In this document: positions 4,757 to 25,944 of the stretch, one piece after another
Numbering within the stretch: the first letter of the stretch is position 1
Layout of the letters: each line of letters begins with the position of its first letter
Assembly (NCBI GenBank): GCA_964472415.1
Contig: CAYYLC010000001.1
Location: forward strand, 197,269 to 237,193
DNA length: 39,925 nt
From: an uncultured Gammaproteobacteria bacterium
GTDB lineage: Bacteria > Patescibacteriota > Microgenomatia > Levybacterales > GWA1-39-11
Reading direction: 5' to 3'
Translations under genes and position numbers: made by a program
Notes under the pieces: model-generated
Seen by the model: the letters and a program-made list of their open reading frames with translations, nothing else
Databases searched by the model: none
What the model was told of the DNA's origin: nothing

Positions 4757-4800
4757 TATATGTCCGCTTGTTATTGCTGGCTATTTATAGTGTGATCTAA

Positions 4801-4806
4801 TAAAAT
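4801..4806 (+). promoter_or_regulatory. Candidate sigma70 -10 element (TAAAAT) for the tagD-like module
   Basis: Lies in a 57-bp intergenic gap, 7 nt before ATG 4814. An alternative TG-n-TCTAAT is at 4793-4801. The region is AT-rich, so a chance match is possible. Confidence 0.35.
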
Positions 4807-4813
4807 ATTATTT

Positions 4814-5242: not shown

Positions 5243-5249
5243 AAGAAAT

Positions 5250-6419: not shown

Positions 6420-6422
6420 TTG

Positions 6423-8549: not shown

Positions 8550-9597
8550 TTTTAAAAAAATAATCTTTGGAGTACTCCTTTTTTTTGTATGGATTCTCCT
8601 AACTGCTTGGTATGTGGTGATCTATGATCAAAGTTTTTTTATAACTTTTCAAGCTCATCAAGAGGAAAATTTTATAGATTTGAGTCATGACAGGCTCTTA
8701 AAAGGAGAGAAAATCTCCGGAGAATTCAAAGCAGAGAGAGATAATTTGGGAATAGTTTCATTAAGGTTTAAAAAATTTCTTCGCATTCCCTATGATCAAG
8801 AAGATACATTGATTTTTAGAATTAAGGAAAAAGATTCTTCTCAATGGTATTACGAAAATGAGTATAGGAGTGGATTAACATATGACGTTCCTTTTTTACC
8901 TTTTGGTTTTCCGTTAATTCCTGACTCTAAAGGGAAAATATATTATTTTGAACTCGAGTCATTGAGGGGAAATTCCGTAAATGGTGTGGTGTTGAGTGAG
9001 AGGGAGCCAATCTTGGTAACCAAGTATGAAGCAGATAGGGGTTTGGTATTTAGTAATCTTAATGAATTGTTCAATTTTTTGAATGAAAAATTTCTTAGAG
9101 CACTTTTAACAATTGATATTTTTTATTCATCAGTAATTTTTGCATTACCTTTAGTTTTCTATTTTTTACATTTTACCTCATTTGGAAAAAGGGTAATGGA
9201 ATATGTGCCGAAATTTATCATTTCAAGGCTCGAAGCTTTTGGTAAGAAATTGTTTGGTAGAAAATATAAACAAACTATAGTAATTCTGTCATCATTCTTT
9301 TATCACTGGATGTTAATCATTCTAATAGTTTTACTGTTTTTTGATATATTTTTCCTCCAAATATTAAATGATTTGTTGTACATTTTGGTAATATTTTTAT
9401 GGATCATAATATTAAAGATCTATCGGAAGGATAGAGTGCAATCTTTCAGATTGGGAATTGTATTATTGATAATTTCTCCAATGGCTCTTGCATTTAGTAA
9501 TGTTGATGTAGCTGAAAAAGCTGCAGTTTGGGCATTTGCGTTTTTTATTGCAGGCTTAATTCAGGCATTTTTAGAAATAAGAAAGAAGCGGAAATAG
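8536..9597 (+). CDS. Hypothetical membrane protein: extracellular beta-rich domain plus about 5 C-terminal TM helices
   Basis: One N-terminal TM, a ~160-aa soluble domain (FGFPLIPDSKGKIYYFELES), then a hydrophobic C-terminus; overlaps the previous stop. Confidence 0.75.
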   Translation: MEKNSFKKIIFGVLLFFVWILLTAWYVVIYDQSFFITFQAHQEENFIDLSHDRLLKGEKISGEFKAERDNLGIVSLRFKKFLRIPYDQEDTLIFRIKEKDSSQWYYENEYRSGLTYDVPFLPFGFPLIPDSKGKIYYFELESLRGNSVNGVVLSEREPILVTKYEADRGLVFSNLNELFNFLNEKFLRALLTIDIFYSSVIFALPLVFYFLHFTSFGKRVMEYVPKFIISRLEAFGKKLFGRKYKQTIVILSSFFYHWMLIILIVLLFFDIFFLQILNDLLYILVIFLWIIILKIYRKDRVQSFRLGIVLLIISPMALAFSNVDVAEKAAVWAFAFFIAGLIQAFLEIRKKRK

Positions 9598-9618
9598 TGT
9601 CTTTTTGTTTTTATTCCG

Positions 9619-9624
9619 TATAAT
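9619..9624 (+). promoter_or_regulatory. Candidate -10 element (TATAAT)
   Basis: Perfect consensus in a 36-bp intergenic gap, 9 nt before ATG 9634; the -35 match is weak. Confidence 0.5.
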
Positions 9625-9633
9625 AAGTTTAAT

Positions 9634-10164
9634 ATGACCATTGGAATTGATATCAGTCAGCTTGCATATAGAAATACTGGTGTAGCAAATTATTTACTGA
9701 GATTATTAAAGGAATTAGTTCATCAAGATAATAATACGTATGTTTTATTTTTTTCTTCATTAAGGCGTGATATTGACCTGCAGGAGTTAGGTTTAGATAG
9801 GGAGAATGTTATACTCAAAAAATTTAAGCTTCCTCCCGTAATTCTTGATACACTTTGGAATAAGATGCATATAATGCCGATAGAAAATTTTATTGGAAAT
9901 ATTGATCTTTTTCTTACTTCTGATTGGACAGAGCCACCAGTAAAAAAAGCAAAAAAGGCGACTATTATTTATGACATGATAGTGTATAAACATCCGGAAG
10001 AAACGAATGAGAGGATTGTTAAAACACAAAAAAGAAAATTGAAGTGGGTAAAAAAGGAATCAGATATTATTTTTTGTATTTCTAAATCTACGAAAAATGA
10101 TGCGATTCAGATTTTAAACCTTGATAAAAATAAAGTACGGGTAATATATCCCGGAGTTGTATGA
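9634..10164 (+). CDS. Stand-alone N-terminal domain of a GT4 glycosyltransferase
   Basis: IGIDISQ..TGVANY, TIIYDMI and IFCISKSTKND. It ends at VRVIYPGV, the end of the GT-B N-domain, with no C-terminal nucleotide-sugar-binding domain. Confidence 0.8.
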   Translation: MTIGIDISQLAYRNTGVANYLLRLLKELVHQDNNTYVLFFSSLRRDIDLQELGLDRENVILKKFKLPPVILDTLWNKMHIMPIENFIGNIDLFLTSDWTEPPVKKAKKATIIYDMIVYKHPEETNERIVKTQKRKLKWVKKESDIIFCISKSTKNDAIQILNLDKNKVRVIYPGVV

Positions 10165-11282
10165 AGATAGGAATAAATGGATTTGAGGCTGTTATGCCAC
10201 GTTTTGGATATGATAAGAACGGATTTCCGAATCGTGTTGGGAGTTCAGAATTTTGTTTTCAGCTTCTCAAGCAATTCGAAAGAACTGACCTTAAAAACGA
10301 ATACCTTATTTTTCTTCCCGATAAGCCAAGTGCTGATATGCCGGAAGAGACAGATAGGTGGAGATATAAAATTATTCCAAATAGAAAGATGTGGACGATT
10401 TTCGGTCTTTCAAAAGAGCTCGTGATGAATCATGGGCTGGATGTGTTTTTTTCTCCCACGCATTATGGCCCTATTTATACGCCATGTCCGCAGGTAATTT
10501 CCATCCTAGACGTTTCCTATAAGCATTTTCCAGAAATGTTTCCCAAAAAGGATTTAATAAAATTAAAATTTTGGGGGAGATATTCTATAAATAGCTCTCA
10601 TAAGATCGTTACAATAAGCGAAAGTTCGAAGAATGATATAATAAATGAATACAAAGTTCCAGCGAGTAAAATTGAGGTTGTGCATCTGGGAATAAAAGAT
10701 ATTTCTCAAGCAAAAATGAATAGAAAAGATCTTGTACAAAAGTATGATTTAGATGATCCATATCTGTTATTCGTTGGAACATTACAGCCTCGAAAAAACA
10801 TCGCTCGCCTTATAGAAGCTTTTTCAAAAATTGAAAAAAAGGGTGTAGATTTGATTATCGTGGGAAGAAAAGGATGGGATTTCAAGAAAATTCTCGAAGC
10901 ACCAAAAAAATATCAAGTGAAAAATAGAGTGAGATTTTTGGAATTAGTAACTGATAAGGAATTGCCAGCACTTTATGAAGGAGCAACAGCATTTGTACTG
11001 CCAAGCTTGTATGAAGGATTCGGATTGCCTATTTTAGAGGCAATGCGATATGGATGCCCGGTCCTTACGAGTAGTATTTCATCACTTCCTGAAGCTGGTG
11101 GAGACGCAGCAGTATACTTTGACCCACAAGATCCAAATGATATTGCGGAAAAAATAAATGCCGTGTTAAAAAGTGAGAAACTGAGAGATGAGATGAGAAA
11201 AAAAGGCTATGAGCAGGTGAAGAGGTTTTCCTGGAAAAAAAGTGCAAAAGAAGTAATACAGATTTTTGAATCATTATTATGA
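10161..11282 (+). CDS. Glycosyltransferase family 4 (GT-B)
   Basis: [14 protein letters not shown] and [15 protein letters not shown] (EX7E) motifs. Confidence 0.93.
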
Positions 11283-11830
11283 ACCGGATAGAAAGACGAA
11301 TAAGAACAATACTTCTGGAATTTAGCAATTTGCTGCTAAAGTTTGTGGGCATTGTTCCTACCCATTTCTTTCGGAGATTTTTTTATAGACTATTTGGTAT
11401 GAAAATTGGTAAGGGGTCAACACTTCATACCGGTGCAGTTTTTTATAACATAAAGAATATTTCTATAGGTAGCGATACTATAATTGGTGAGAATGTAATT
11501 CTGGATGGGAGAGAGAAGATTGTGATAGGAAATCATGTCGACTTTGCGTCAGAAGTAATGATTTATAATTCTCAGCATGACATTAATAGTGATGATTTCC
11601 ATGCAGTCTCTGCTCCTGTTATTGTTAAGGACTATGTGTTTATAGGGCCTCGGGCAATTATTCTTCCAGGAGTGACTGTCGGAAAGGGCTCAGTGGTTGC
11701 AGCGGGTGCGGTCGTTACGAAGGATGTAGCAGATTTTACAATAGTTGCGGGTGTGCCTGCAAAAGTGATCGGAGAGCGAAAAAATAAAAACCCAAAATAT
11801 AAATTAGGACGAGCAGCATGGTTCCGCTAG
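11279..11830 (+). CDS. Hexapeptide-repeat (LbH) acyltransferase, WcaF/maltose-acetyltransferase-like
   Basis: Repeats of (I/V)GxxTxI, plus [31 protein letters not shown] and GVPAKVI. Confidence 0.9.
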
Positions 11831-11835
11831 AAGGT

Positions 11836-12696
11836 ATGCCAAAAATTTCCCTCATAATTCTTACCTATAATTCATCGCGATATATCTCCGATCTTCTAAC
11901 TGGACTTATGAACAGATTCGATAAAGAACTAGTAAATAAAGCCCTGGAGATTTTAGTTGCGGATAATGCTTCTCAGGATGAGACAGTAAAACTTGCAAAA
12001 AAATTTAAAAAAATTCAGGTAATAGAAAACGGGGGGAATTATGGATTTGCAAAAGGAAATAATTTAGCAGTTAAAAAAGCTACAGGAGAATATTTATTAT
12101 TTATAAATCCAGACGCGAAATTTATCGATGGAGATATTTTTGAGCTTTTGAAATCATTCAAAGATGAAAAAGTGGGGATTGTGGGAGGAGAGATTATGAA
12201 TTGGCAAAAAGAAAAAGAATTATCGTGTGGTAAATTTTATAAATTTTTTAGTACAACATTACTTACGCTTGGATTGGAAGAATTTTTTCGTGTGCGATTT
12301 TCTCCGGAAAAGGAACAGTTTGTAGATTTTGTGAGTGGGGGATTTTTAATGATTCGAAGAGAGGTTTTTGAGAAGCTTAACGGATTTGATGAAAATTATT
12401 TCATGTACATTGAGGATTCAGATCTATGTTTTCGCGCAAAAAAAATAGGATATAAAACAAAATTTTCCCCTAAAGCAACTATTCAGCACATGGGGCAAGG
12501 GAGTTCCAATAGGACATTTGCAATCATAAATATTTATAAAGGATTAGTATATTTTAATAAAAAGCATTCAAATTATTTAGAATACTTGTTTGTGAGATTT
12601 GCCCTAAAAACTAAGGCATTATTGCTTGTAATACTGGGAAAAATAATGAATAATAGATACCTGGTGGATACCTATTCTGTGGCTATGAAATTATGA
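11836..12696 (+). CDS. Glycosyltransferase family 2 (WbbL/rhamnosyltransferase-like)
   Basis: IILTYNS, ADNASQD, NYGFAKGNN, LFINPD and FDENYFMYIEDSDLC. ATG 11836 is preferred. Confidence 0.9.
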   Translation: MPKISLIILTYNSSRYISDLLTGLMNRFDKELVNKALEILVADNASQDETVKLAKKFKKIQVIENGGNYGFAKGNNLAVKKATGEYLLFINPDAKFIDGDIFELLKSFKDEKVGIVGGEIMNWQKEKELSCGKFYKFFSTTLLTLGLEEFFRVRFSPEKEQFVDFVSGGFLMIRREVFEKLNGFDENYFMYIEDSDLCFRAKKIGYKTKFSPKATIQHMGQGSSNRTFAIINIYKGLVYFNKKHSNYLEYLFVRFALKTKALLLVILGKIMNNRYLVDTYSVAMKL

Positions 12697-15600
12697 AAAA
12701 ATATTTTTCTTGGATCTTGGAACATGCCCTCTTTATCGTAACGCTTTTTCTCCTTGCATTTATCCCCTTGTATCCAAAAATCCCATTAGTTGATATTCAG
12801 AATACATGGGTATATATTCGTGCTGAGGATTTTGTTGTTTTTTTAGTTTTGATATTATGGACGATTTATCTTATTCGAAATAAGATAACATTGAGAACTC
12901 CCCTTACTCTTCCGATATTCGGATTCTGGATAGTAGGTGCTGTAGCAACGATTCATGGAATAATACTCCTTTTCCCAAATCTCGCAAATGTATTTCCGAA
13001 CGTTGCATTCCTGAGTTTTCTCAGAAATATTGAGTATATTAGTGTATTTTTTGTGGCATTTTCAGCCATGCGTGATAAAAAATTCCTAAAAATTATTATT
13101 TTTGTTCTTGTGCTAACACTTCTTGCGATTATTTTCTATGGGTTTGGTCAGAGATTTTTAGGTTTTCCCGCCTTTCTTACCATGAATGAGGAGTTTGCTA
13201 AAGGAGTTCCGATCCAGCTCTCAGAGCTTTCTCGTGTCCCCTCAACTTTTGCGGGACATTATGATTTGGCTGCATATCTCGTTTTGATAATTCCCATTGT
13301 AGTGAGTCTTATTTTTGGATTTAAAAATTGGTTTATAAAAATATTTTTAGGTATTACAACCATATTAGGGTTTGTGTTGCTTTTTATGACAGTTTCACGA
13401 GTTTCATTCTTTGTCCTCATTTTGTCACTTCTTATTGTCCTTTTCTTCCAGAAGAGAAAATTAGTTTTGTTTTCTGTGCCAGTTCTCGTAATTTTGGGAT
13501 TTGCATTTCTTATTTTACGACCTACGACACTTCTAGAACGATTTAGCGATACAGTGAATGAGGTAAATGTGCTTGTTAATGCAGAAACTGGACAAGCAAT
13601 AGCACATGTTGAATATGTAAGCCCTGATTATTTTAATGAGAAGATTATCGCACAGCAAGATATTGGTACTACTCAGGAGTTGAGCGATGTTCTAAATGGA
13701 GTATTGCAAGACGATACTGCCGCTACTCCTTCTGCTTTTTTACCTGCGAGACTTTTCCCTCAAAAAATCCCACTTGTTATCGATAGAAATGTTTCGACTG
13801 GGGAGGAGCTTATTCAAGGAACTGGATATATAAATCTTTCACTTTCACCAGTTGATAAAAAACTAGGGAACTTTTTCTATGAAATTACTGATGAGAAAAA
13901 CTCTAACATCTCTGCAGATGTTCTTATACTACATGGAGACTTTTTGGTAAAACGGGCAGCAGCATATGATCTCTCGTTTACGACTAGGTTTCAAGGGGGA
14001 TGGCCGAATGCTTTGGAATCATTTGAGAGAAATGTGTTTTTAGGGAGCGGATATGGAACGGTGACACTGGCTGTGGATAATAATTATCTCAGAATACTGG
14101 GGGAAATCGGCATATTAGGACTTCTGTCCTATGCAGGAATATTTGTAACACTTGGGATTTATATTGTGAGAGTTCTTCCGAAGACCGATTCAAGCCTTCT
14201 TAAAAGCTTCGTGATTGGGTATGCTGCAGGAGTTATAGGGATTGCCTTGAACGCAACACTTATCGATGTATTTGCAGCCTCAAAAGTCGCATTTGTATTG
14301 TGGCTTTTGACTGGAGTAGTGGTTGGGTTACTCTCTTTGTATCAAGTAAGAGAGTTAGATTTTAAAGCAGAGTTGAGAAACTTTACACTATCGCCTGTTG
14401 CGATAATTTTGTATATTTTTATTCTTACATTCGTTATTTATATTCCAATACTTAATAATTATTTTATTGGGGATGATTTTACGTGGTTTCGGTGGGCGGT
14501 AGATTGCACGTATGGAGGACTACAGTCCTGCCCAAATATTTTTGAACGAATAGCAGACTATTTTACATCAGCTAATGGATTTTTCTATAGACCTGGCACA
14601 AAAACATTCTTCCTTGTCGGATATTCAGTGTTTTGGTTAAATCAAGTAGTTTTTCATTTAATATCCATAATGCTCCACGCAATTGTCGTTGCGTTATTTT
14701 TTCTACTTTCTCGGAAAGTTTTGAAGAGTAATTTGCTTGCAGCACTTGGGGGCATTCTTTTTATTGTGATGAGCGGATATGCAGAAGTGGTGTTCTGGAT
14801 ATCCGGAATTGGACACCTTTTTAATGCAGTATTTGTAATGTTTTCGATACTGCTTTTTTCTGCATGGAACAACTCAAGAAAAGTTTATTATCTACTCGGT
14901 AGCATTGTTTCTATATTCTTAGCTACATTTTTCCATGAATTAGGAGTAGTGGCGCCTCTCCTTATTATTATATATTCCTTATTTGTGACAAAGCGATTTA
15001 CTATAAAAAGATTGCATAAGAAAATAGATATATTTGTATTGTTTATTCCTGTCGTGCTGTATCTTTTGATGCGTTATATGGCAAAAAGTCATTGGAGTGG
15101 AGGAGATTATAGCTACGATATTTTGATGCTACCGTTTAATGTAGTGGGAAATATTTTTGGTTATGTGATGATAGTAATTTTAGGGCCCATGTCTTTGTCC
15201 TTCTACCAGGTTATTCGTACCACTCTGAGAGAAAATATTTTTGTTGCAGGAATCTTGGCTGTGATTTTCATAGGTATCTTGTTCATTCTCTACCAGTATT
15301 TGTGGAAGAAGATTAAGCAAGATGATATTAAGATAATCCTTTTTGGAATTGCATTTTTTATTATCTCCCTACTTCCATTTATCGCTTTGGGAAACATAGC
15401 CTCTCGATATAGTTATCTTGCTTCCATTGGAATTGTAATTATTATGGTGTTTATTCTTGGTAAATTATTGAGAATTCTGATGAGGTATGGTGCAGGGATC
15501 GCCTATGGCGGGATGCTTGTTCTGCTTTCTATCTTTACGCTATTTCATATTATCCAGATTCAGCAGCTCCATGGGGATTGGAAAACAGCGGGGGATAAAG

Positions 15601-15935
15601 TTGAGCAATTCCTTATCTCCATGGATTCACTTTATAGAGATTCTTGGGCAAGTGCTGAGACAGAATTGCATTTTGTAAATGTACCGATAAAGCACAATGA
15701 TGCTTGGGTGTTTCCAGTAGGTGTTGAAGATGCGCTATGGCTTACATTCCAGAATGATGATTTGAAAGTGGTGAATCATCAAAGTATTGATGATGCAGTG
15801 GATTTAGTTGGGCTGTTTCCACATAAATCTATTTTAGTTTTTGAAGAAAATGGTCATATAGAAGAGATAAGAGTTTTTAAAAGTATTTATACAGGAGACA
15901 TAGAATACGAGTTTGTAAATACAGAAAGAGAATAG
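12693..15935 (+). CDS. Fusion protein: O-antigen ligase/Wzy-like domain plus TMTC-like GT-C glycosyltransferase domain
   Basis: N-half: RVPSTFAGHYDLAAYL, TVSR and R....W..A...LGSGYG...DNNYLRILGEIG. C-half: FIGDDF, FYRP, FHLISIMLH and EVVFWISG. About 20 or more TM segments in one uninterrupted 1080-aa frame. Confidence 0.75.
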   Translation: MKKYFSWILEHALFIVTLFLLAFIPLYPKIPLVDIQNTWVYIRAEDFVVFLVLILWTIYLIRNKITLRTPLTLPIFGFWIVGAVATIHGIILLFPNLANVFPNVAFLSFLRNIEYISVFFVAFSAMRDKKFLKIIIFVLVLTLLAIIFYGFGQRFLGFPAFLTMNEEFAKGVPIQLSELSRVPSTFAGHYDLAAYLVLIIPIVVSLIFGFKNWFIKIFLGITTILGFVLLFMTVSRVSFFVLILSLLIVLFFQKRKLVLFSVPVLVILGFAFLILRPTTLLERFSDTVNEVNVLVNAETGQAIAHVEYVSPDYFNEKIIAQQDIGTTQELSDVLNGVLQDDTAATPSAFLPARLFPQKIPLVIDRNVSTGEELIQGTGYINLSLSPVDKKLGNFFYEITDEKNSNISADVLILHGDFLVKRAAAYDLSFTTRFQGGWPNALESFERNVFLGSGYGTVTLAVDNNYLRILGEIGILGLLSYAGIFVTLGIYIVRVLPKTDSSLLKSFVIGYAAGVIGIALNATLIDVFAASKVAFVLWLLTGVVVGLLSLYQVRELDFKAELRNFTLSPVAIILYIFILTFVIYIPILNNYFIGDDFTWFRWAVDCTYGGLQSCPNIFERIADYFTSANGFFYRPGTKTFFLVGYSVFWLNQVVFHLISIMLHAIVVALFFLLSRKVLKSNLLAALGGILFIVMSGYAEVVFWISGIGHLFNAVFVMFSILLFSAWNNSRKVYYLLGSIVSIFLATFFHELGVVAPLLIIIYSLFVTKRFTIKRLHKKIDIFVLFIPVVLYLLMRYMAKSHWSGGDYSYDILMLPFNVVGNIFGYVMIVILGPMSLSFYQVIRTTLRENIFVAGILAVIFIGILFILYQYLWKKIKQDDIKIILFGIAFFIISLLPFIALGNIASRYSYLASIGIVIIMVFILGKLLRILMRYGAGIAYGGMLVLLSIFTLFHIIQIQQLHGDWKTAGDKVEQFLISMDSLYRDSWASAETELHFVNVPIKHNDAWVFPVGVEDALWLTFQNDDLKVVNHQSIDDAVDLVGLFPHKSILVFEENGHIEEIRVFKSIYTGDIEYEFVNTERE

Positions 15936-15953
15936 TTTAAAGCATTTTATTAC

Positions 15954-17390
15954 ATGAAAAAAAAGACCCTCATTTTTCTTATCATAATTTTCCTTTTCGG
16001 ATTTATAGTACGGATTTATAAAATCCATGAGCCGATTGCTGATTGGCATTCATTCCGCCAATCAGATACTGCTGCGGTTTCGAAAATTTATGCAAGAGAG
16101 GGAATTGATATGTTGTATCCTAAATATTACGATATTTCAAATGTCCAATCAGGGTTAGATAATCCAAGCGGGTACCGATTTGTAGAATTTCCACTATATA
16201 ATGTCTTTCACGCATTATTATCAAATACTTTCTCATTTTTTTCATTTGAAATATGGGGAAGGCTCATAAATATTTTTGCATCGCTTGCGAGCGCATTCGC
16301 GATATATTTATTAGTAAGAAAGTACGCAAATGAAATTTCTGCAAGATTTTCTCTAATAGCATTTTTATTTCTTCCGTTTTCTATTTTTTATAGTAGATCA
16401 ATCCTTCCGGATGTTATGATGACGACAAGCATTCTTACGGGGACGTATTTTTTCGATAAATATCTTGAAAAGAGAAGAAATACTAGGGTGACAATTTTGT
16501 TTTATATTCTGGCTTTATTTTTTGTAGCACTCGCATTTCTTCTCAAGCCATTTTCTTTGTTTTTTACGTTTCCTCTTGTGTATCTTGCGTGGAAAAAATA
16601 TAGTATCAAGATATTTTTTAGCATTCCGCTTTGGATTTTTGCAGTCTCTGCAGTTGCTCCATTAATATGGTGGCGATATTGGATTTCTCAATTCCCTGAA
16701 GGGATTCCTGTATCTGCATGGCTTTTTAATGGGAATGGTATCAGGCTTCGTCCGGCATTTTTCCGATGGATTTTGTATGAAAGGATTACTAAATTAATTC
16801 TCGGCTTTAGTGGAATAATATTTTTATTGGGAAGTTTCTGGTCGTTGAAAAAGAAGAATATATTTTTTTTCCTTTCATTTGCATTTTCGAGCATGGTTTA
16901 TTTAATAATTATCGCAACTGGAAATGTTCAGCATGATTATTATCAAATTGCAATAATTCCGACGATTTCGATATTTGTAGGACTTGGTGCTTATGAGATA
17001 TATAAATTTATTGCAAAAAGGACATTTTCAATTTTCGGATTCATGGTAGTTGGAATTTTGTTTTTAACTGCCTTTCTTTTTTCTTGGAATCAAGTGAAGG
17101 ATTATTTTAATATAAATGATAGGAATATGGTTGAAGCGGGGAGGCGAGCTGACGAGATTTTGCCACAGAATGCTTTAGTGATTGCCCCTTATGATGGAAG
17201 TAGCACACTGCTCAATATGGTTTCTCGGAGAGGATGGCCAGTATTCCAAAGTTCTGTAGAAGATCTGATAAAAAAAGGTGCAGATTATTTAATAATAGCA
17301 AGTCCTACCGAGAATGATAGAATGGGATTTGGTAGACAATATGAAATATTAGAGAGTAGTGATGCATATTTGATACTAAGGCTACAATGA
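15954..17390 (+). CDS. GT-C glycosyltransferase, PMT/ArnT-like (family 39/83-like)
   Basis: First loop WHSFRQSDTAAVS, EFPLY, YSRSILPD, LAFLLKP and many TM helices. Confidence 0.8.
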   Translation: MKKKTLIFLIIIFLFGFIVRIYKIHEPIADWHSFRQSDTAAVSKIYAREGIDMLYPKYYDISNVQSGLDNPSGYRFVEFPLYNVFHALLSNTFSFFSFEIWGRLINIFASLASAFAIYLLVRKYANEISARFSLIAFLFLPFSIFYSRSILPDVMMTTSILTGTYFFDKYLEKRRNTRVTILFYILALFFVALAFLLKPFSLFFTFPLVYLAWKKYSIKIFFSIPLWIFAVSAVAPLIWWRYWISQFPEGIPVSAWLFNGNGIRLRPAFFRWILYERITKLILGFSGIIFLLGSFWSLKKKNIFFFLSFAFSSMVYLIIIATGNVQHDYYQIAIIPTISIFVGLGAYEIYKFIAKRTFSIFGFMVVGILFLTAFLFSWNQVKDYFNINDRNMVEAGRRADEILPQNALVIAPYDGSSTLLNMVSRRGWPVFQSSVEDLIKKGADYLIIASPTENDRMGFGRQYEILESSDAYLILRLQ

Positions 17391-18559
17391 TCAAGATTTT
17401 ATTTGTAACATATGATTTTCCGTTTCCGCCAAATTCTGGAGGAAAAAGTAGAGCTTATAATCTCATGAAGTATGCGAAGACGAAAGGTGTACAGATTTAT
17501 CTCTTGTCATTTATGAGAGCTAGTTTTGATAAAAAATGGAAAAGAGAGCTATATGATATCGGAGTTTCAGAAGTAGGGGTTCATAAGAGGAAGAAATTAA
17601 AGTCCATATCTACTATCTCTAAAAATATCCTTTCAAAGGACTCTATTTTTAAAACTCTTTATCATGATGATGGTTTTAAGAAAAAATTATTAAATATGAT
17701 AGAGGTGCATAATATAGACGTTGTCCATTTTGAATCAAGTTATACTGGATATTATCTGAAGTATGTAAAAACGGGAAAAATTAAAACAATTCTTGGAACA
17801 GAAAATATTGAACACCTTTTATATCAGGACTTTCTTAAGACTACAAATTTTATACAAAAATCTATATTGCAATTTCAGATTGATCGATTTAAAAGAGAGG
17901 AGGAATTGATGATGAAGTTGGCAGACCTAAGTCTTGCGGTAACTAAAGATGAGGCGCGATATATAGAGAGAATTTCAGGTAAAAAATGCGAAGTTGTAGA
18001 AAATGGAATTAGCGTAAAAGATTTAAGCTATTCTTTCCAAGAGCGCACTATCGATAATCTCATATTCGTTGGAAATTTTTCATACATGCCAAATCGAGGC
18101 GCGATTCAATATTTTATTCGTGATGTAATGCCGAAATTACCCGAAAATATAACTTTAACGATTATTGGAAAAAACGTTTCAAAGTACGTGGAGCCGAGTG
18201 GGAGAATTAGAGTAAAAGATTTTGTATCGGATTTATCTGTAGAGTATAAGAATTCTGATGCGCTGATTTTCCCCGTTAAAATAGGTGGAGGAACGAATTT
18301 TAAAGTTCTTGAAGCCATGGCTTTGGGGGTGCCGGTTGTAGGATTTGCTGATAAAATAGAAAGCATAGGAGCTCGAAAGAATAAGGAATTTTTTCCTGTA
18401 GAAAATGCCTTGGATTTTGTACGACAGATCGAGACTATTCAGAATAAGAGAGAAATAGTAAAAGAGGTGACGATGAGTGCAAGAAAACTAGTGGAGGAGA
18501 ATTATTCTTGGGAGGAGATTGGGAGAAAGCTCAATACTATTTGGAAAAATTATAAATGA
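17387..18559 (+). CDS. Glycosyltransferase family 4
   Basis: FPPNSGGKSR, FVGNFSYMPN, GGGTNFKVLEAMALGVPVV and YSWE motifs. Confidence 0.92.
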   Translation: MIKILFVTYDFPFPPNSGGKSRAYNLMKYAKTKGVQIYLLSFMRASFDKKWKRELYDIGVSEVGVHKRKKLKSISTISKNILSKDSIFKTLYHDDGFKKKLLNMIEVHNIDVVHFESSYTGYYLKYVKTGKIKTILGTENIEHLLYQDFLKTTNFIQKSILQFQIDRFKREEELMMKLADLSLAVTKDEARYIERISGKKCEVVENGISVKDLSYSFQERTIDNLIFVGNFSYMPNRGAIQYFIRDVMPKLPENITLTIIGKNVSKYVEPSGRIRVKDFVSDLSVEYKNSDALIFPVKIGGGTNFKVLEAMALGVPVVGFADKIESIGARKNKEFFPVENALDFVRQIETIQNKREIVKEVTMSARKLVEENYSWEEIGRKLNTIWKNYK

Positions 18560-19470
18560 AGAAAATTGACTTATCGATAATAATCGTAACATTTAAATCA
18601 GAAAATTTGATAGAAAAATGTTTGGATTCTGTGTATGAAAATGCAGGCGATGTTAGTCTTGAAGTGATTATCTCCGATAATAGCCCAAATCAAAATACGA
18701 AGGATGTAATTGAGAAAATTCAGAGTAAATACAAAAACTTTGCTTTTGTTAAGAATAAGAAAAATGAGGGATTTTCTCGCGGCAATAATATTGGAATTAA
18801 AAAAGCAGTCGGTGAATATGTGCTTTTTCTAAATCCTGATGTGATTCTTAAAAAAAATACTTTGAGAGGGATGCTTGATTTTATAAAGGAGCATTCAAAC
18901 GCAGGAGCTGTCACTTGTCGGGTAAATCTCATGAATGGACAACTTGATGATTCGTGCCACCGAGGATTCCCTACTCCATGGAATGCATTTTGTCATTTCA
19001 CGAAGCTTTCAAAACTATTTCCCAAGATAAAACTTTTTTCAGGATACAATTTAACATATATGGATTTTTCTAAAACTCACGAGATTGATGCTTTGGCTGG
19101 GTCTTTTATGTTGATGCCATTTTCATTAGGTAGAAAATTAAATTGGTGGGATGAAGATTACTTTTTTTATGGTGAAGACATTGATTTTTGCTACCGGATT
19201 AAAAAAACAGGTTTTAAGATTTATTTTGTTCCTAAATATGAGGCTCTTCATTATAAAGGGGCTTCGAGTGGTATCAAAAAAATATCCAAAAATATCAGCA
19301 CTGCTGATAAAAAGACGAAGCTTTGGGTTACTAATCAGCGCTTTAAGGCGATGGAGATTTTTTATGACAAACATTATAAGAAAAAATATCCGAGTATATT
19401 AAGATCGGCCATATTACTCGGAATTAATTCTCGAAAAAATATAGAAAGGATGCGTATCTTTTTAAGTTAA
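18556..19470 (+). CDS. Glycosyltransferase family 2 (WbbL-like)
   Basis: IIIVTFKS, SDNS, GFSRGNN, LFLNPD and WDEDYFFYGEDIDFC motifs. Confidence 0.92.
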   Translation: MKKIDLSIIIVTFKSENLIEKCLDSVYENAGDVSLEVIISDNSPNQNTKDVIEKIQSKYKNFAFVKNKKNEGFSRGNNIGIKKAVGEYVLFLNPDVILKKNTLRGMLDFIKEHSNAGAVTCRVNLMNGQLDDSCHRGFPTPWNAFCHFTKLSKLFPKIKLFSGYNLTYMDFSKTHEIDALAGSFMLMPFSLGRKLNWWDEDYFFYGEDIDFCYRIKKTGFKIYFVPKYEALHYKGASSGIKKISKNISTADKKTKLWVTNQRFKAMEIFYDKHYKKKYPSILRSAILLGINSRKNIERMRIFLS

Positions 19471-20580
19471 ATGAGAATAGGAATAGACGCTCGTTTGTAT
19501 TATGAGAGCGGTGTTGGGAGATATATAAAAAATACACTCGAGCAGTTAGATGAACGCTGCCGTACTGAGAAAATAGATCACAAATTTTTTATCTTCTTGT
19601 CTTCTAAAGGGTTTCAGCAGATACATTTTAATAGTAATAACCTTATAAAGGTGGAAGCCGATATTTCATGGCATTCCCTCCAGGAGCAATTTTTATTTGC
19701 AAAGCTTTTGAATTCATATAATCTTGATCTTATGCATTTCACCTATTTCTCACTCCCTATTTTTTATAGAAAGAAATTTGTGGTAACAATTCATGATTTA
19801 ATTATCAATCATGTGAATACGGGAAAAGCAACTACACTTCCGAAACCATTATATTATCTCAAGCGTTTTGTATATCATAAGGTGATCCGTTATGCAGTTA
19901 AAAATTCAATTTATATTATTTCTCCTTCTGATGCGACAAGAGATGAGGTAGTTTCCTATTATAAAATAAAAAAGGAAAAAATAATCGTAATTCCAGAAGG
20001 GGTAGACCCTGAGGTCAAAAAAATAAAAAAACCACAGATAAAAATTCCTATGCCGTATATTTTATATGTTGGGAATGCGTATCCTCATAAAAATTTAAAT
20101 CGTCTCGTTGAATCTTATGTCAGTATTGAAAATACTATTAAGCAAGAGTTATTACTTGTGGGAAGAAGTGATTATTTTTATAAAAGACTACATAATAAGA
20201 TTCGCAACCATAAAAAGATCCATATTTTGCATGGGATTTCTGATAATGAATTGGCCTATCTTTATAAAAAAGCAGATTTTCTTATAGCACCATCTCTCAT
20301 GGAGGGTTTTGGATTAACACCGCTTGAGGCCATGGGAAATGGTTGCTTACCTGTAGTATCTCGCATTGACGCTTTTTATCAAGTATGTAGGAATGCTGCA
20401 TTGTATTTTAATCCTAAAGATATTCAAGATATCTCTCTTGTTCTTTCAAATGCGGCAAATCTTTCTACTCAAGAGAAGTCTAAGTATAAAAAGCGTTTTC
20501 GCGATCGGCTAGAGTTATTTTCCTGGAAAAAATCAATAGAGAGGACTTTGTCAGTTTATGAACGTTGCAATAGTATATGA
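19471..20580 (+). CDS. Glycosyltransferase family 4
   Basis: IGIDAR..SGVGRY, YVGNAYPHKNL and PSLMEGFGLTPLEAM motifs. Confidence 0.93.
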   Translation: MRIGIDARLYYESGVGRYIKNTLEQLDERCRTEKIDHKFFIFLSSKGFQQIHFNSNNLIKVEADISWHSLQEQFLFAKLLNSYNLDLMHFTYFSLPIFYRKKFVVTIHDLIINHVNTGKATTLPKPLYYLKRFVYHKVIRYAVKNSIYIISPSDATRDEVVSYYKIKKEKIIVIPEGVDPEVKKIKKPQIKIPMPYILYVGNAYPHKNLNRLVESYVSIENTIKQELLLVGRSDYFYKRLHNKIRNHKKIHILHGISDNELAYLYKKADFLIAPSLMEGFGLTPLEAMGNGCLPVVSRIDAFYQVCRNAALYFNPKDIQDISLVLSNAANLSTQEKSKYKKRFRDRLELFSWKKSIERTLSVYERCNSI

Positions 20581-21634
20581 TCGAGTAAATAAATGGGGGG
20601 GAGCTGAGCGAGTTCTTCTGGCGCTTCATGAAATGTTTCCAGGCGCGCCACTTTACACGTCTCTTTATTCTCCACAAAAAGCGAAATGGGCACGTAAATT
20701 TGAAGTAAGAACATCATTTCTCCAACGCCTCAAATTTCTTCGTGATAAACATGAATTACTGGGGCTTTTTATGCCAATTGCGTTTGAATCATTTGATTTT
20801 TCTGAGTTTGACTTGGTGATTTCCGTAACGAGCGAATCGGCAAAAGGGATTATTACTCCTCCCCAGGTAAAACATATTTGTATTTGTCTTACGCCCACTC
20901 GATATTTATGGAGTGAGTATGGGCAGTATTTTAAGAATCCGATATTTCGATTTATTACATCGCCACTAGTTTGGTATTTAAAAAAATGGGAACTTGTTGC
21001 GATACAAAGACCTGATTATATAATAGCAATTTCCCAAAATATTCAAAGAAAAATAGGTAAATTTTATGGTAAGAAGAGTGATGTAATATATCCTCCAGCA
21101 AGTTCAATTCTTCAAGAAGAAAACATCATAGAGCCACAGAATAAGGATTATTTATTAGTGGTCTCTCGACTTGTCCCCTATAAAAAAATTGACATAGTGG
21201 TGAAGGCTGCAAATGAATTGAACTTGCCATTGGTTGTAGTAGGGAAGGGAATTGAAGAACAGTATTTGAGAGAAATAGCCGGCAAAACAGTGCAATTTAA
21301 AAGATCAGTTCGAGATGATGTGTTGCGGGGATATTTAAAGAATGCGAAAGTGCTTATTTATCCATCCGAGGAGGATTTTGGGATTGGGATGGTGGAGGCG
21401 CAGCTCCATGGAACTCCTGTTATCGCATTTCGGAAAGGAGCTGCTAGTGAGATAGTAGTTCCTGGTGAGACCGGTGAGTTATTTGAGCAGCAGACAGCGG
21501 GTTCACTTATCGCTGTGTTGAAAAAATTCAACGCAACTTCGTATAATAGAGATAGATGTAGAAAAAACGGTATGCGTTTTTCAAATCAGGTTTTTAAGAG
21601 TGCACTTACTCGTTACATACGGAAAGTGATATAA
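20558..21634 (+). CDS. Glycosyltransferase family 4 (probable mannosyltransferase type)
   Basis: GGAERVL, VVSRLVPYKKID and EEDFGIGMVEAQ (EX7E); directly upstream of manC. The sugar specificity is inferred from context. Confidence 0.9.
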   Translation: MNVAIVYDRVNKWGGAERVLLALHEMFPGAPLYTSLYSPQKAKWARKFEVRTSFLQRLKFLRDKHELLGLFMPIAFESFDFSEFDLVISVTSESAKGIITPPQVKHICICLTPTRYLWSEYGQYFKNPIFRFITSPLVWYLKKWELVAIQRPDYIIAISQNIQRKIGKFYGKKSDVIYPPASSILQEENIIEPQNKDYLLVVSRLVPYKKIDIVVKAANELNLPLVVVGKGIEEQYLREIAGKTVQFKRSVRDDVLRGYLKNAKVLIYPSEEDFGIGMVEAQLHGTPVIAFRKGAASEIVVPGETGELFEQQTAGSLIAVLKKFNATSYNRDRCRKNGMRFSNQVFKSALTRYIRKVI

Positions 21635-21643
21635 TCAAAAAAT

Positions 21644-22726
21644 ATGAAAGTAGTCTTTTTTGCAGGAGGAGTCGGAACGCGATTGTGGCCCGTTTCTCGC
21701 AAAAGCACCCCGAAACAATTCGAAAAAATTGTAGGTGATAAGTCTACTTTGCAGCTTGGGATTGATCGAGTTAGAGATATTGTAGATTCGCAGGATATTT
21801 ATATTTCTACAGGAAAAAGTTACAGTAAGGTTATTTACAATCAGCTCCCTGAGGTACCAAAGCAAAATATTATTCTAGAACCGTGTGCTCGTGATGTAGG
21901 GGCAGCTGTTGGAATGGTTGCGGCAATTTTGTCTCGTGTTTCTCCGGACGAACCATTCGTTATATTATGGAGTGATCACTTAGTGAAAGAGACTGAAAAA
22001 TTCCAAAAAATCTTACTTGCTGCAAAAGAAATATTGGAAAAAGACTCTGAAAAGATCGTTTTTATCGGTCAAAATTCTCGGTTCCCGAGTGAAAACCTTG
22101 GATGGATTGAAAGTGGTGATAAGGTACAAGACATAGATGGGCTCGAGGTTTTCCGTTTTAAAAGTCTCCATTATAGACCAGATAAAGAGACTGCAGAACG
22201 CTTCCATGATAGTAAGAATCATTCATGGAATCCTGGGTATTTTGTAACGACTGGAAGACACTTATTTAGTCTTTATGAGAAGCATGCTCCTGAGATGGCA
22301 AAAAAGTTAAAGTTGATTGCGAGTCATTGGGGTAAAGATAGTTTTCAGGAGGTTATTGATAGAGAGTACCCATTGTTCGAGAAAATATCCTTTGATAATT
22401 TAATCCTTGAAAAACTTGAAGAAAGTGATGGATACGTGATAGGGGCAGAGCTTGGATGGAGTGATATTGGAGCATGGGAAGCATTAAAAGAAGCACTTTC
22501 AGATAGTGAAGACGAGAGTATTACGAAAGGAAAGGTGCTTTTGCATGATGTGCGGGATAGTATTGCGTATAACTATACCGATAAAATGATTGTGGGGATT
22601 GATCTTGATGGAATGATAATCGTTAACACGAATGATGTTATTATGATCTGTCCAAAAAATTCTGTTCCAAAGATAAAAAAGCTCGTAGAGTCATTGGAGG
22701 GGACAGAATACGAACATCTCACATAG
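21644..22726 (+). CDS. manC: Mannose-1-phosphate guanylyltransferase (monofunctional, no cupin/PMI domain)
   Basis: AGGVGTRLWPVSRKSTPKQF, ILEP..RD, WSDH, SWNPGYF, ISFD and WSDIGAW motifs. Confidence 0.9.
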   Translation: MKVVFFAGGVGTRLWPVSRKSTPKQFEKIVGDKSTLQLGIDRVRDIVDSQDIYISTGKSYSKVIYNQLPEVPKQNIILEPCARDVGAAVGMVAAILSRVSPDEPFVILWSDHLVKETEKFQKILLAAKEILEKDSEKIVFIGQNSRFPSENLGWIESGDKVQDIDGLEVFRFKSLHYRPDKETAERFHDSKNHSWNPGYFVTTGRHLFSLYEKHAPEMAKKLKLIASHWGKDSFQEVIDREYPLFEKISFDNLILEKLEESDGYVIGAELGWSDIGAWEALKEALSDSEDESITKGKVLLHDVRDSIAYNYTDKMIVGIDLDGMIIVNTNDVIMICPKNSVPKIKKLVESLEGTEYEHLT

Positions 22727-22781: not shown

Positions 22782-23420
22782 ATGTTTTACGATATCTCAA
22801 AACGAATTTTCGATATTTTTTTTGCCATAACTCTTCTTATATTATTTTCTCCTATATTATTGGTTACCGTTATTGCAATAAAACTAAACTCTCCGGGGCC
22901 AGTATTTGCAGATACGCCACCACGAGTAGGGAAAAATGGAAAGACATTTCGGATGTATAAGTTTCGTTCTATGGTCCAGAATGCACATGATATTTTGACT
23001 ACTGATCCTACATACAAAAAGCTTTTTGAAGAATATAAGAAGAGTGGATACAAACTTCGAAATGATCCTCGGATAACAAGTGTAGGGAGATTTATTCGAA
23101 AGTATTCAATTGACGAGATGCCACAGTTTCTGAATGTTATCAGTGGTGATATGAGTATAGTGGGACCTCGTGCATATTACGGCGATGAATTACGAGATCA
23201 GCAAAAAAAATTCCCTCATACAAAAAATGCGGTTAAGATTGTGCTTTCAGTAAAGCCTGGGATTACTGGCGTGTGGCAAGTTACCGGGCGTAGTGATATT
23301 AATTTTGATAAACGGATTCAGCTTGATGCGAACTATGCAAAACGACGATCTATATGGTATGATTTCTATCTGATACTACGTACTCCATTTGCTATGCTTT
23401 CCGGTAAGGGCGCATTGTAG
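22782..23420 (+). CDS. Initiating sugar-phosphate (polyprenyl-P glycosyl-1-P) transferase, small PGT of the WbaP/WcaJ C-terminal type
   Basis: KRIFDI, YKFRSM, DPRITSVGRFIRKYSIDEMPQFLNV, MSIVGPR and KPGITGVWQVTGR motifs. Confidence 0.93.
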   Translation: MFYDISKRIFDIFFAITLLILFSPILLVTVIAIKLNSPGPVFADTPPRVGKNGKTFRMYKFRSMVQNAHDILTTDPTYKKLFEEYKKSGYKLRNDPRITSVGRFIRKYSIDEMPQFLNVISGDMSIVGPRAYYGDELRDQQKKFPHTKNAVKIVLSVKPGITGVWQVTGRSDINFDKRIQLDANYAKRRSIWYDFYLILRTPFAMLSGKGAL

Positions 23421-23453: not shown

Positions 23454-25418
23454 ATGAATACTTATATGGATAATAACGGGTTTAAAAAGATAGAATTAAA
23501 TAATGCGAAATCCCAAAAGGATATAATAGAAGAAAGGGAGCAGGAGATGGGAAAACGAAAAAGAAAATTTTCATTAAAATCTCGGAAAGCAAAAATTATT
23601 TCAGCAATTCTTGTATTTGTTATATTGCTGGGTATCTATACTACGATAAGCGCGATAGGGATTTATAAACAAGGGCAGATTGTTGAGGAGAAAGCTCGTC
23701 TTGCGATGGATGCTATTAAGCAGCAAAATATCCAAGAAGCCCGAAATCAGCTTGGAGAAACACACAAAGAGGTCAAATCACTCTCTTCAAAAGTAAATGG
23801 GGTATTTTATCTTGGGTTTATCCCATTTTTAGGAGGTTATTATAATGATCTCAATCATATGGTAAAAGCTGCAGATCACGGTGTTCAGGCGGGAATTATC
23901 ACTACAGAAACGCTAATCCCTTATGCAGATGTGTTAGGACTTCAGGGTGATGGAAAATTCTCTGGCGGAACTGCACAGGATAGAATTCGTCTTGCAGTAC
24001 AAACTATGGGGAAGGTTGTACCAGAAATTGACAAAATTGAAGAACAGATAGTCTTTGCAAAAAAAGAAATGGATGAGGTGAATCCGAAACACTATCCTGA
24101 GATCGGGAAGATGAAAGAACTGCGTGTAATGCTCATAGATCTCAAAAGTGGAGTTGATAGTGCAGTTTTTGCAGTAAACGAAGGCAAGCCGCTTATTAAA
24201 GCACTCCCCGGATTATTAGGAGAATCTGAACCGCAAAGATATCTAGTATTATTTCAGAATGACGCAGAGTTGCGTGCTACCGGGGGATTTCTCACGTTCT
24301 ATTCTATATTTAAAGTCGATGAAGGTGTAATAGAGGTAGAGGATTCCTCAGATATTTACGAGCTTGATGAGAGCATCTCTTCACATCCTGCACCCCCTCC
24401 GATTGTTCGAAAATACCTTGAGGTTAATAGGTTGTATATTCGGGATAGTAACTTATCACCAGATTTTAAAGAGTCTATGGATAGTTTTCTCTCACAGTAT
24501 GAGAATTCTGGAAAGGAGCAGGATATTAATGGAATTATTGCAATTGATACAGAGGTGCTTGTCAATATGATTAGAATTTTGGGTGAAGTAAGTGCTTCAG
24601 GGCTTACGTTCAATGCGGAAACAGATCCTCGATGTGACTGCCCGCAGGTTGTGTATGAGCTTGAGGATCAAATTTCTCGTCCGGTAAATTATATCCGTAC
24701 GAATAGAAAAGGTTTAATTTCAGAACTCATGCTTGCGATTATGAATAAGGCACTATCTTCATCACCAGGTCAGTATTGGGGGCCACTATTCCAACAATTC
24801 GTGATTGATGCACAGGAAAAACATATTCTGTTCTACGTATTTAATGAAGATGCTCAAAAAGGACTTGAGGCGCTGAATTGGGCGGGAAGAATCCGGATGT
24901 TTGATGGGGACTATTTGCATATTAATGATGTAAACCTAGGTGGAGCAAAGTCGAATCTGTTTATTTCTCAGAGCGTAGAAATGGATTACACTATTGAGGA
25001 TGATGGGCAAATCAAGAAAAAAATTACTATCGAATATCGAAATCCACGACCACATTCTGATTGTGATCTGGAGAGTGGTGCGCTATGTTTGAATGCAACA
25101 TTAGGTAATTTCCAGCGAGTATATGTGCCTAAAGGTGCAAAGCTTGCCAATGTAAAAGGTTCTCAAGTAGATGTTGAGACGAAAGAAGAGTTAGGAAAGA
25201 CGTATTTTGAATCATTCTTAACTGTCCCACCGCTTGGAAAAGCCGAGATTTCTTATGAATATATTCTTCCATTTAAATTACATGAAGATTCAGTTCTTCC
25301 TGTTATGTTGCAAAAACAGCCGGGGGTTGAGCTGATAAAATACGAGATTAGCGTAAATGGAGAAAAAGTTGAAGAATTTGATTTGCGGGGAGACAAGATT
25401 TTAGAACTTGAGGTGTGA
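23454..25418 (+). CDS. DUF4012 domain-containing membrane-anchored protein
   Basis: Basic N-terminus, one TM and a helical stalk, then LVLFQNDAELRATGGF, RDSNLSPDF and GIIAID motifs and a beta-rich C-terminal domain. The start may be 23466. Confidence 0.82.
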   Translation: MNTYMDNNGFKKIELNNAKSQKDIIEEREQEMGKRKRKFSLKSRKAKIISAILVFVILLGIYTTISAIGIYKQGQIVEEKARLAMDAIKQQNIQEARNQLGETHKEVKSLSSKVNGVFYLGFIPFLGGYYNDLNHMVKAADHGVQAGIITTETLIPYADVLGLQGDGKFSGGTAQDRIRLAVQTMGKVVPEIDKIEEQIVFAKKEMDEVNPKHYPEIGKMKELRVMLIDLKSGVDSAVFAVNEGKPLIKALPGLLGESEPQRYLVLFQNDAELRATGGFLTFYSIFKVDEGVIEVEDSSDIYELDESISSHPAPPPIVRKYLEVNRLYIRDSNLSPDFKESMDSFLSQYENSGKEQDINGIIAIDTEVLVNMIRILGEVSASGLTFNAETDPRCDCPQVVYELEDQISRPVNYIRTNRKGLISELMLAIMNKALSSSPGQYWGPLFQQFVIDAQEKHILFYVFNEDAQKGLEALNWAGRIRMFDGDYLHINDVNLGGAKSNLFISQSVEMDYTIEDDGQIKKKITIEYRNPRPHSDCDLESGALCLNATLGNFQRVYVPKGAKLANVKGSQVDVETKEELGKTYFESFLTVPPLGKAEISYEYILPFKLHEDSVLPVMLQKQPGVELIKYEISVNGEKVEEFDLRGDKILELEV

Positions 25419-25419
25419 T

Positions 25420-25944
25420 ATGCAATTCATTCGTGATGATGGTTTTATAATAAAGCGGAGAAATTTTGGAGAAGCAGATAGGATTCTTACGATTTTTTCT
25501 AAGCAAAATGGAAAAATAACCGTCCTTGCAAAAGGAGTCCGAAAAATTACGAGCCGCCGTGGAGCACTTCTGGAGCCTTTTAATCATGTAAAATTCCACA
25601 CCGTTCAATCCTATACTCGAAGAGTGCTTACTGAGGTGGAGTTAATTCGTTCATTTGATGAATATAAAAATAATCTTGAGCCTTATCAGAAGATTCTAAT
25701 TGCCTGCGAATTGCTCGATGCGCTCTGTGGGGAAGATCAGCTACTCTCAAGTCTATATGAAAAAGTGCTATTATTTGCTTATAGGGACAAAAGTGAAAAG
25801 TCACTACATGATTTTAAGATGGATTTATTAGTAAATCTTGGATATTGGAATAATGATAAAAAATTTATTGATGATAACCACTCATATAGCTATATTGAGA
25901 GTATAATTGAGCGAAAATTAAAGTCGCGATCATTTTCGTTTTAG
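25420..25944 (+). CDS. recO: DNA repair protein RecO (short form)
   Basis: GFIIKRRNFGEADRILTIFSKQNGKITVLAKGVRK..SRRG..LEPF; sits next to glycyl-tRNA synthetase, a known conserved neighbourhood. Confidence 0.92.
   Translation: MQFIRDDGFIIKRRNFGEADRILTIFSKQNGKITVLAKGVRKITSRRGALLEPFNHVKFHTVQSYTRRVLTEVELIRSFDEYKNNLEPYQKILIACELLDALCGEDQLLSSLYEKVLLFAYRDKSEKSLHDFKMDLLVNLGYWNNDKKFIDDNHSYSYIESIIERKLKSRSFSF

Follow-up and report, generated by a model that had tools for sequence, protein, structure and literature searches.

In the 39,925-nucleotide stretch of contig CAYYLC010000001.1 analyzed here (the window), a roughly 20-kb glycan-assembly locus with a priming phosphoglycosyl transferase (PGT) gene at its end is followed directly by an ATG-started open reading frame (ORF; 23454..25418, plus strand) that encodes a 654-amino-acid (aa) protein of the DUF4012 family. 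The central alpha/beta domain of this protein appears, to the extent that a predicted model can tell, to be a very diverged version of the fold of the LytR-CpsA-Psr (LCP) glycopolymer phosphotransferases (PF03816), the enzymes by which glycopolymers are fixed to Gram-positive cell walls, and the gene is coupled to PGT both in synteny and in phyletic distribution. We see an about even chance that the protein is an LCP-fold ecto-enzyme handling the polyprenyl-diphosphate-linked glycan made by its own operon, which it would either transfer or release, and consider it rather doubtful that its action is ligation to peptidoglycan specifically. A ligase of the latter kind had been proposed in an earlier, sequence-only reading of this DNA; the ORF, the coordinates of the three motifs singled out there, and the place of the gene directly after the initiating transferase all agreed with our ORF and Pfam scans, and the description of a membrane-anchored extracellular protein closing the glycan locus was borne out by hydropathy, structural model, and gene order.

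The protein was assigned to DUF4012 by a Pfam scan (PF13196, E value of 2.6e-24, 86.8 bits against a gathering cut-off of 28, aa 259-382); no NCBIfam model matched it. Its relatives comprised 9,676 representatives at E values up to 0.001, and a PDB sequence search returned no direct relatives. The full-length protein was then modeled with AlphaFold2 from a 122-sequence alignment at 37-78% identity and with no templates, which gave a mean predicted local distance difference test (pLDDT) score of 89.1 and a predicted template modeling score (pTM) of 0.84. The central domain (aa 250-484) was folded separately (pLDDT, 88.1; pTM, 0.85) and searched against the PDB with Foldseek, the check that the sequence-only reading had named. 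Ranks 1 to 15 of this domain-only search, drawn from 350,542 PDB chains, were all LCP structures: Cps2A (3tep, 3tel, 2xxq, 2xxp, 3tfl, and 4de8), Lin1025, Lmo1026, TagV, LytR, EF0465, and 3pe5. Their E values ranged from 9.3e-6 to 4.8e-4, with a probability of 1.00, TM-scores (TMq) of 0.41-0.51, and alignments of 226-249 columns, i.e., the whole domain. YvhJ/TagU, gbs0355, and 4obm appeared lower in the same list, and the next fold class after LCP was the Hsp70 nucleotide-binding domain, at a TM-score of about 0.2. The same PDB entries were found by sequence with the true LCP of this genome. The LCP fold is an alpha-beta-alpha arrangement in which a five- to seven-stranded sheet is flanked by helices and a hydrophobic tunnel for the polyprenyl chain runs between the sheet and helices 3-7; the secondary-structure order of the DUF4012 central domain is collinear with LCP. 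In the full-length search, Cps2A (3tep, 3tel, and 2xxq) and Lin1025 (3owq) were recovered at E values of about 1e-3 over roughly 240 columns, standing among matches to the N-domain of M1 aminopeptidases.

Several results weigh against this assignment. The evidence for an LCP-like fold rests on predicted structures, and a TM-score of about 0.5 together with a root-mean-square deviation of 6-10 Å points to a remote relationship and not to a near one. BLASTP of the DUF4012 protein against the LCP of its own genome gave an E value of 0.31 with the motifs unaligned, PF03816 was matched neither by the window protein nor by any of 64 diverse DUF4012 proteins at E values up to 10, and a DUF4012 profile searched against PDB sequences returned no LCP chain. 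When the full-length DUF4012 profile was compared by hhalign with a profile of 30 LCPs from the candidate phyla radiation (CPR), the transmembrane helix alone was matched, at 11.6% probability, and all DUF4012-LCP runs, at two profile depths, gave probabilities of 1-12%. A core-only comparison produced a collinear path of 185-192 columns with a P value of 0.047, and 4/30 block-shuffled controls equaled or exceeded its score. This same nonsignificant path pairs DINGIIAIDTEVLVNMIRILGEV with the LCP pattern IxYYVxVDFxGFxxxIDxLGGIxV and YxRxxRK with DFxRxxRQ; since the alignment lies within the shuffled controls, these residue pairings were not relied on, and the resemblance of DINGIIAIDTEVLVNMIRILGEV to an LCP pattern, picked out by eye in the sequence-only reading, is not above chance as sequence. 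Homology to LCP at the sequence level was not supported, the BLASTP, Pfam, hhalign, and PDB profile results all being negative or within shuffled controls.

These figures would also fit an artefact or a case of convergence, in which a generic alpha/beta sandwich falls nearest to LCP by chance and is functionally unrelated to it: the TM-scores are just 0.41-0.51, the full-length E values are marginal, and nothing in the sequence comparisons rises above chance. We regard this as very unlikely, since the 15 top matches all come from one small family within the whole set of PDB chains and cover the whole domain, the order of secondary-structure elements is collinear with LCP, and the protein shares its cell location, architecture, and genomic context with LCP enzymes. 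The preferred assignment remains that of a very diverged LCP-type domain, on the strength of the models.

We then determined which residues are conserved in 42 DUF4012 proteins from across the phylum, which are 19-46% identical to the window protein. Positions conserved at 85-100% in the core domain were Y263, L264, N269, E272, R274, P275, G277, G278, F279, G291, Y302, D305, P315, R330, D331, N333, D337, F338, G360, G377, K419, and G478, and those in the C-terminal domain, a beta-sandwich, were D486, N494, K499, R555, P559, Y603, P606, K621, Q622, G624, and D647. The charged motifs named in the sequence-only reading turned out to be the core of the family signature. The first, FQNDAELRATGGF (aa 267-279; 24252..24290, plus strand), lies at the end of strand beta1 and in a flexible loop, where pLDDT dips at aa 275-277, and its N269, E272, R274, G277, G278, and F279 are found in every protein of the set. 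The second, RDSNLSPDF (aa 330-338; 24441..24467, plus strand), occupies the loop before helix 338-350, with R330, D331, N333, and D337 conserved at 90-98%. The segment DINGIIAIDTEVLVNMIRILGEV (aa 357-379; 24522..24590, plus strand) is modeled as strand 360-365, helix 366-376, and strand 379-381; since only G360 and G377 are conserved in it, it represents a fold signature (a strand-helix-strand unit) and no catalytic motif. A further motif, YIRTNRK (24690..24710, plus strand), is placed at the N terminus of helix 421-435; K419 is conserved at 95%, and the subfamily of the window protein additionally carries R415 and R418, of which R418 is invariant there. The family motifs QNxxELRPTGGF and RDxNxSPDF and the C-terminal NxGGxK and QKQPG are all carried by the window protein.

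The dense invariant polar set (N269, E272, R274, D305, R330, D331, N333, D337, K419, K499, and Q622) is, judged from conservation, more suggestive of an enzyme site than of a scaffold. In the beta-sandwich, the invariant polar residues are D486, N494, K499, R555, K621, Q622, and G624, with K499, Q622, and G624 at 100%; this strong conservation suggests that the domain may contribute to the predicted site, a feature in which DUF4012 would depart from LCP. In LCP enzymes the pyrophosphate site consists of an arginine triad (R267, R362, and R374 of Cps2A, with D371 and Q378) and acidic Mg2+ ligands. The DUF4012 candidates for comparison with this triad are R274, R330, and K419, with E272, D305, D331, and D337, their equivalence being drawn from a nonsignificant alignment only; the same limit applies to the tentative pairing of YIRTNRK with Cps2A D371/R374/Q378 at the helix start DFxRxxRQ. 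The conserved polar positions directly follow beta1 and beta3 or fall in the flexible beta1-beta2 loop, in the loop that leads into helix 338-350, and where helix 421-435 begins, and by comparison with PMC7831098 these seem to be the kinds of position where LCP enzymes hold Asp and Arg.

The topology of the protein was derived from a hydropathy scan and the model. The N-terminal tail (aa 1-45; 23454..23588, plus strand) is disordered (pLDDT of <50 for aa 1-40) and contains the basic stretch KRKRKFSLKSRKAK just before a single transmembrane helix (about aa 46-70; 23589..23663, plus strand), which is continuous with helix 44-89 of the model. As the basic stretch precedes the sole hydrophobic segment, the N terminus should lie inside and the ectodomain outside (C-out), which implies that DUF4012 is a type II, membrane-anchored, extracytoplasmic protein, as read from its sequence. 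In the AlphaFold2 secondary structure the helix leads into an extracytoplasmic stalk or accessory domain of five long helices (aa 71-254; 23664..24215, plus strand), a region that matched only coiled-coil and helical-bundle chains in a profile search of the PDB. The central alpha/beta domain with the predicted LCP-like fold follows (aa 255-484; 24216..24905, plus strand, delimited by the domain model and Foldseek), and the C-terminal beta-sandwich, recognized by modeled strands and conservation, completes the protein (aa 485-654 plus the stop codon; 24906..25418, plus strand). Full-length Foldseek also matched the M1-aminopeptidase N-domain, Legionella lpg2210 (4g2a), and a chain of an oligosaccharyltransferase (OST) subunit (6s7t_E), and the beta-sandwich, as modeled, probably accounts for these matches. 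The architecture of LCP proteins (transmembrane helix, accessory domain, LCP domain, and extra C-terminal domain) is paralleled by that of DUF4012 (PMC7831098).

Pfam and NCBIfam scans of the glycan-assembly operon 5' of the DUF4012 gene (3368..22726, plus strand) identified, in order, a Wzx-type flippase, TagD-like and TagF-like proteins, and GT-C/PMT_2-like membrane proteins, then several GT4 and GT2 transferases, a hexapeptide acyltransferase, a 1080-aa Wzy_C-like protein, and ManC. The 1080-aa membrane protein (12693-15935) has a weak match to Wzy_C (O-antigen ligase/polymerase; E value of 0.0086). The next gene encodes a small monotopic PGT of 212 aa (Bac_transf, the priming enzyme; 22782..23420, plus strand; PF02397, E value of 6.2e-61; TIGR03025, 2e-75), whose stop codon is separated from the DUF4012 start by a 33-nt gap; this PGT is the single copy in the genome.

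We asked how far this arrangement extends in a sample of 40 DUF4012 loci across the phylum, each taken with about ±9 kb. Glycan-assembly genes stood within 5 genes of DUF4012 in 36/40 loci and PGT in 22/40, and the immediate upstream gene on the same strand encoded PGT in 9/40 and a GT2 or GT4 transferase in 20/40 (29/40 together). The class to which the window belongs keeps the order GT4-GT4-(ManC)-PGT-DUF4012-RecO-GlyRS, the RecO-GlyRS pair following DUF4012 in 10/40 loci. Two other subclasses were seen: GT2-GT2-DUF4012-S41 peptidase, with the CtpB-like peptidase directly downstream, in 7/40 loci, and PGT-GT4-GT4-DUF4012-MurJ-LepA, with MurJ directly downstream in 6/40 (L059, L063, L074, L075, L077, and L078) and LepA next after it in those of the six whose following gene was scanned. 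MurJ is the lipid II flippase and has a polyprenyl-diphosphate substrate. One locus contains a 1040-aa fusion (L073:7592-10714; G177:C14) of an NAD-dependent sugar-nucleotide epimerase/dehydratase (PF01370, E value of 1e-33) to a transmembrane segment and DUF4012.

The relation to canonical LCP was determined across 201 genomes of the phylum that were at least 80% complete. DUF4012 was present in 161/201 and LCP in 191/201; 159 genomes carried the two together, 2 had DUF4012 but no LCP, 32 had LCP but no DUF4012, and 8 had neither of them. PGT was found in 157/161 DUF4012-positive genomes versus 29/40 DUF4012-negative ones. The sequence-only reading had asked whether DUF4012 and LCP are mutually exclusive in glycan loci: across genomes they are not, with both in 159/201, whereas at the locus level no LCP gene was present in the roughly 9 kb to either side of DUF4012 at the 40 loci. 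Seven genomes of one family, f17 (G009, G036, G061, G127, G146, G164, and G196), lack both PGT and DUF4012 and keep LCP in 7/7 cases. In the closed genome G114, two divergent DUF4012 matches were found, with no LCP and no Bac_transf.

The source genome itself (934 kb in 14 contigs, rated 100% complete; window GC content of about 35%), in which the nearest relatives of the window proteins carry the annotation Levybacteria/Microgenomates (CPR/Patescibacteria), encodes a canonical LCP of 393 aa (PF03816, E value of 5e-37; G000:C2:91621-92802 in our numbering, minus strand; L001:1126-2307) with the motif YVLIIDFAGFVKLIDHLGGIEV. Its gene is on a different contig, at a distance of about 8 kb from MurJ and not within a glycan locus. 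This LCP, and CPR LCPs generally, carry GIGGGTHDGxxLTDT after strand beta1, the position at which classical LCPs have the pattern GxDxR...RxDT. The attachment step that DUF4012 had been supposed to supply as the missing one is not missing at the genome level, because this LCP is encoded elsewhere.

We see DUF4012 as a putative second, operon-dedicated LCP-fold enzyme that would work beside the canonical LCP and would not replace it. The adjacent priming PGT would start a polyprenyl-diphosphate-linked glycan, which the upstream glycosyltransferases, the flippase, and the polymerase would complete. DUF4012 would act on this lipid-linked glycan outside the membrane, at the last step, where it may break the sugar-phosphate/lipid-diphosphate bond; the glycan or glycan-1-phosphate would then either be handed to an acceptor in the envelope or be released, and the lipid carrier would be freed for recycling.

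Other features of the genome and locus, added to those given above for the fold, tell against such a role. A canonical LCP is present here and in 159/161 DUF4012-positive genomes, so that ligation could be wholly the job of LCP, and the 1080-aa protein with its Wzy/WaaL-like module is, by its sequence, a rival candidate ligase in the same locus. R274 and R330 are the only invariant core arginines, unlike the LCP constellation, and the sampled genomes are related to one another, so that the phyletic counts overstate independence. The first two points suit an alternative in which the same fold serves a different chemistry, DUF4012 being a glycan hydrolase, lyase, or transglycosylase or a carrier-recycling polyprenyl-diphosphate phosphatase, with attachment left to LCP or to the Wzy/WaaL-like 1080-aa protein. 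The conserved set is indeed rich in acids (E272, D305, D331, D337, D486, and D647) with only two invariant core arginines, the LCP is encoded elsewhere in the genome, the 1080-aa protein does match Wzy_C weakly, and LCP enzymes themselves show pyrophosphatase activity (PMC7831098). We nevertheless judge this alternative unlikely, since the top structure matches of the domain include no glycoside hydrolase or lyase, and the tight, ancient coupling of DUF4012 is to the priming PGT and not to particular sugars or polymer types.

The position of DUF4012 after a priming enzyme is also seen outside the phylum. Bifidobacterium longum 105-A BL105A_0406, in the eps1 operon, belongs to the DUF4012 family and lies directly after the priming PGT; the order is priming PGT, DUF4012, and a Wzz-type gene, and the DUF4012 gene is cotranscribed with the priming gene (PMC5412050). 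In this actinobacterial capsule/exopolysaccharide (EPS) locus, the protein is annotated only as an "auxiliary/envelope protein", and neither the text nor the gene table of that paper mentions LytR or LCP (PMC5412050). The neighboring Wzz-type gene and the annotation as auxiliary are what might be expected if DUF4012 were a noncatalytic assembly factor, with an LCP-like shell for binding either the lipid-linked glycan or the priming enzyme, and served as a scaffold, a regulator of chain length or export, or a copolymerase-like partner of Wzx/Wzy, itself transferring nothing. Such a role would suit the long helical stalk that follows the single transmembrane helix, the canonical LCP arginine pattern not being evident in the DUF4012 sequence, and the retention of a canonical LCP in nearly all DUF4012 genomes. 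It would not explain about 16 invariant polar residues in the core and beta-sandwich of proteins only 19-46% identical, which are typical of a catalytic or substrate-binding site. No Pfam similarity to the Wzz/polysaccharide copolymerase (PCP) families was found either, there being no Pfam or NCBIfam match to their profiles for the DUF4012 protein or its 64 relatives, and we take an assembly factor to be an improbable answer, on a par with the different chemistry considered above. CpsA holds the same position in streptococcal cps cassettes as DUF4012 does in B. longum.

The closest known counterparts of the putative enzyme are the LCP phosphotransferases (PF03816), such as Streptococcus pneumoniae Cps2A (3TEP and 2XXQ), Bacillus subtilis TagT/U/V (6UF3 and 3NXH), and Staphylococcus aureus LcpA (6UEX). 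LCP and DUF4012 proteins alike have an N-terminal transmembrane anchor, an accessory domain, and an extracytoplasmic alpha/beta domain (its fold in DUF4012 being predicted), are encoded with cell-surface glycopolymer genes, and occur in Gram-positive-type lineages and CPR. DUF4012 differs from LCP in showing no detectable sequence similarity to that family, in its long helical stalk, and in its conserved C-terminal beta-sandwich; it co-occurs with LCP without replacing it, and its gene keeps synteny with that of the Bac_transf priming enzyme, whereas the LCP gene of this genome is outside any glycan locus. Its residue constellation (N-x-x-E-x-R-x-x-GGF, RDxNxxxD, and K419) also differs from the LCP arginine triad with its Asp and Gln partners. 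Actinomyces oris LcpA provides one option for DUF4012, being an LCP-fold enzyme that moves a lipid-linked glycan to a nonpeptidoglycan acceptor (PMC6381275); since it glycosylates a protein, the LCP fold can serve other acceptors. A. oris LcpA is, however, a member of the LCP family at the sequence level, with R128, R149, and R266, and uses a sortase substrate, whereas DUF4012 fails sequence membership, and no sortase or LPXTG gene was found near either DUF4012 gene of this genome, though the genome encodes four sortases and a single IPETG protein. The WaaL/Wzy_C-type O-antigen ligases (GT-C-like) likewise stand in glycan loci and carry out the last extracytoplasmic step, from polyprenyl-diphosphate-linked glycan to final acceptor; they are polytopic and of a fold unrelated to DUF4012, so that the module at 12693-15935 is a rival in role and not a relative. 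In our literature search, no paper was found that assigns DUF4012 a function or links it to LCP. DUF4012 appears, as far as the models can be followed, to be a structurally LCP-like family that failed sequence membership, with its own residue constellation, extra domains, and a distinct partner, the priming PGT.

The remaining features of the gene and its surroundings are as follows. The start of the ORF is ambiguous within 23454-23468, as an identical database cluster representative of 650 aa begins at Met5 (MDNN...), four codons further in. The 3' end of DUF4012 overlaps by 11 nt with a short form of RecO (25408..25944, plus strand), a protein of 178 aa with a TTG start, in which only the N-terminal domain was matched (about 143/239 positions of the TIGR model); RecO is followed by GlyRS, and this in turn by the dcw cluster. 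No promoter or terminator signal over the shuffled expectation was found between DUF4012 and its neighbors. The second DUF4012 paralog of the genome (G000:C2:182124-184781, minus strand; L004:9125-11782) is 885 aa long, 28% identical to the window protein over the ectodomain, and has a roughly 290-aa cytoplasmic N-terminal domain without a Pfam match. It adjoins VIT1, is two genes from a class A penicillin-binding protein, and lies close to a 422-aa Wzy_C protein. A degenerate counterpart of the epimerase domain in the 1040-aa fusion was considered for its N-terminal domain and set aside, BLASTP giving a weak hint only (E value of 0.028).

DUF4012 is very widespread, with 161/201 sampled phylum genomes and thousands of sequence clusters, and it is among the protein families that mark out CPR bacteria and Gram-positive-type lineages (PMC6744442). 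A tentative wider view, which we hold possible and no stronger than that, is that DUF4012 forms a second ancient branch of the LCP fold, a transferase for Bac_transf-primed heteropolysaccharides that would have its own site made of core and beta-sandwich and an acceptor unlike that of canonical LCPs. That acceptor, if the view is true, could be a protein, a lipid, or another peptidoglycan site, and different acceptors would explain why nearly all CPR genomes, and many Gram-positive, cyanobacterial, and Chloroflexi ones, contain DUF4012 and LCP side by side. We know of no account, for many surface polysaccharides of Gram-positive bacteria and CPR and for the capsules and EPS of bifidobacteria, of how the finished glycan comes off its lipid carrier and where it ends up attached. 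The LCP-like predicted fold and the synteny with PGT give DUF4012 a concrete hypothesis in this respect, one open to mutagenesis and assay. LCP enzymes are already considered as antibacterial targets, and, if our reading is true, DUF4012 may represent a second class of cell-envelope ligases.

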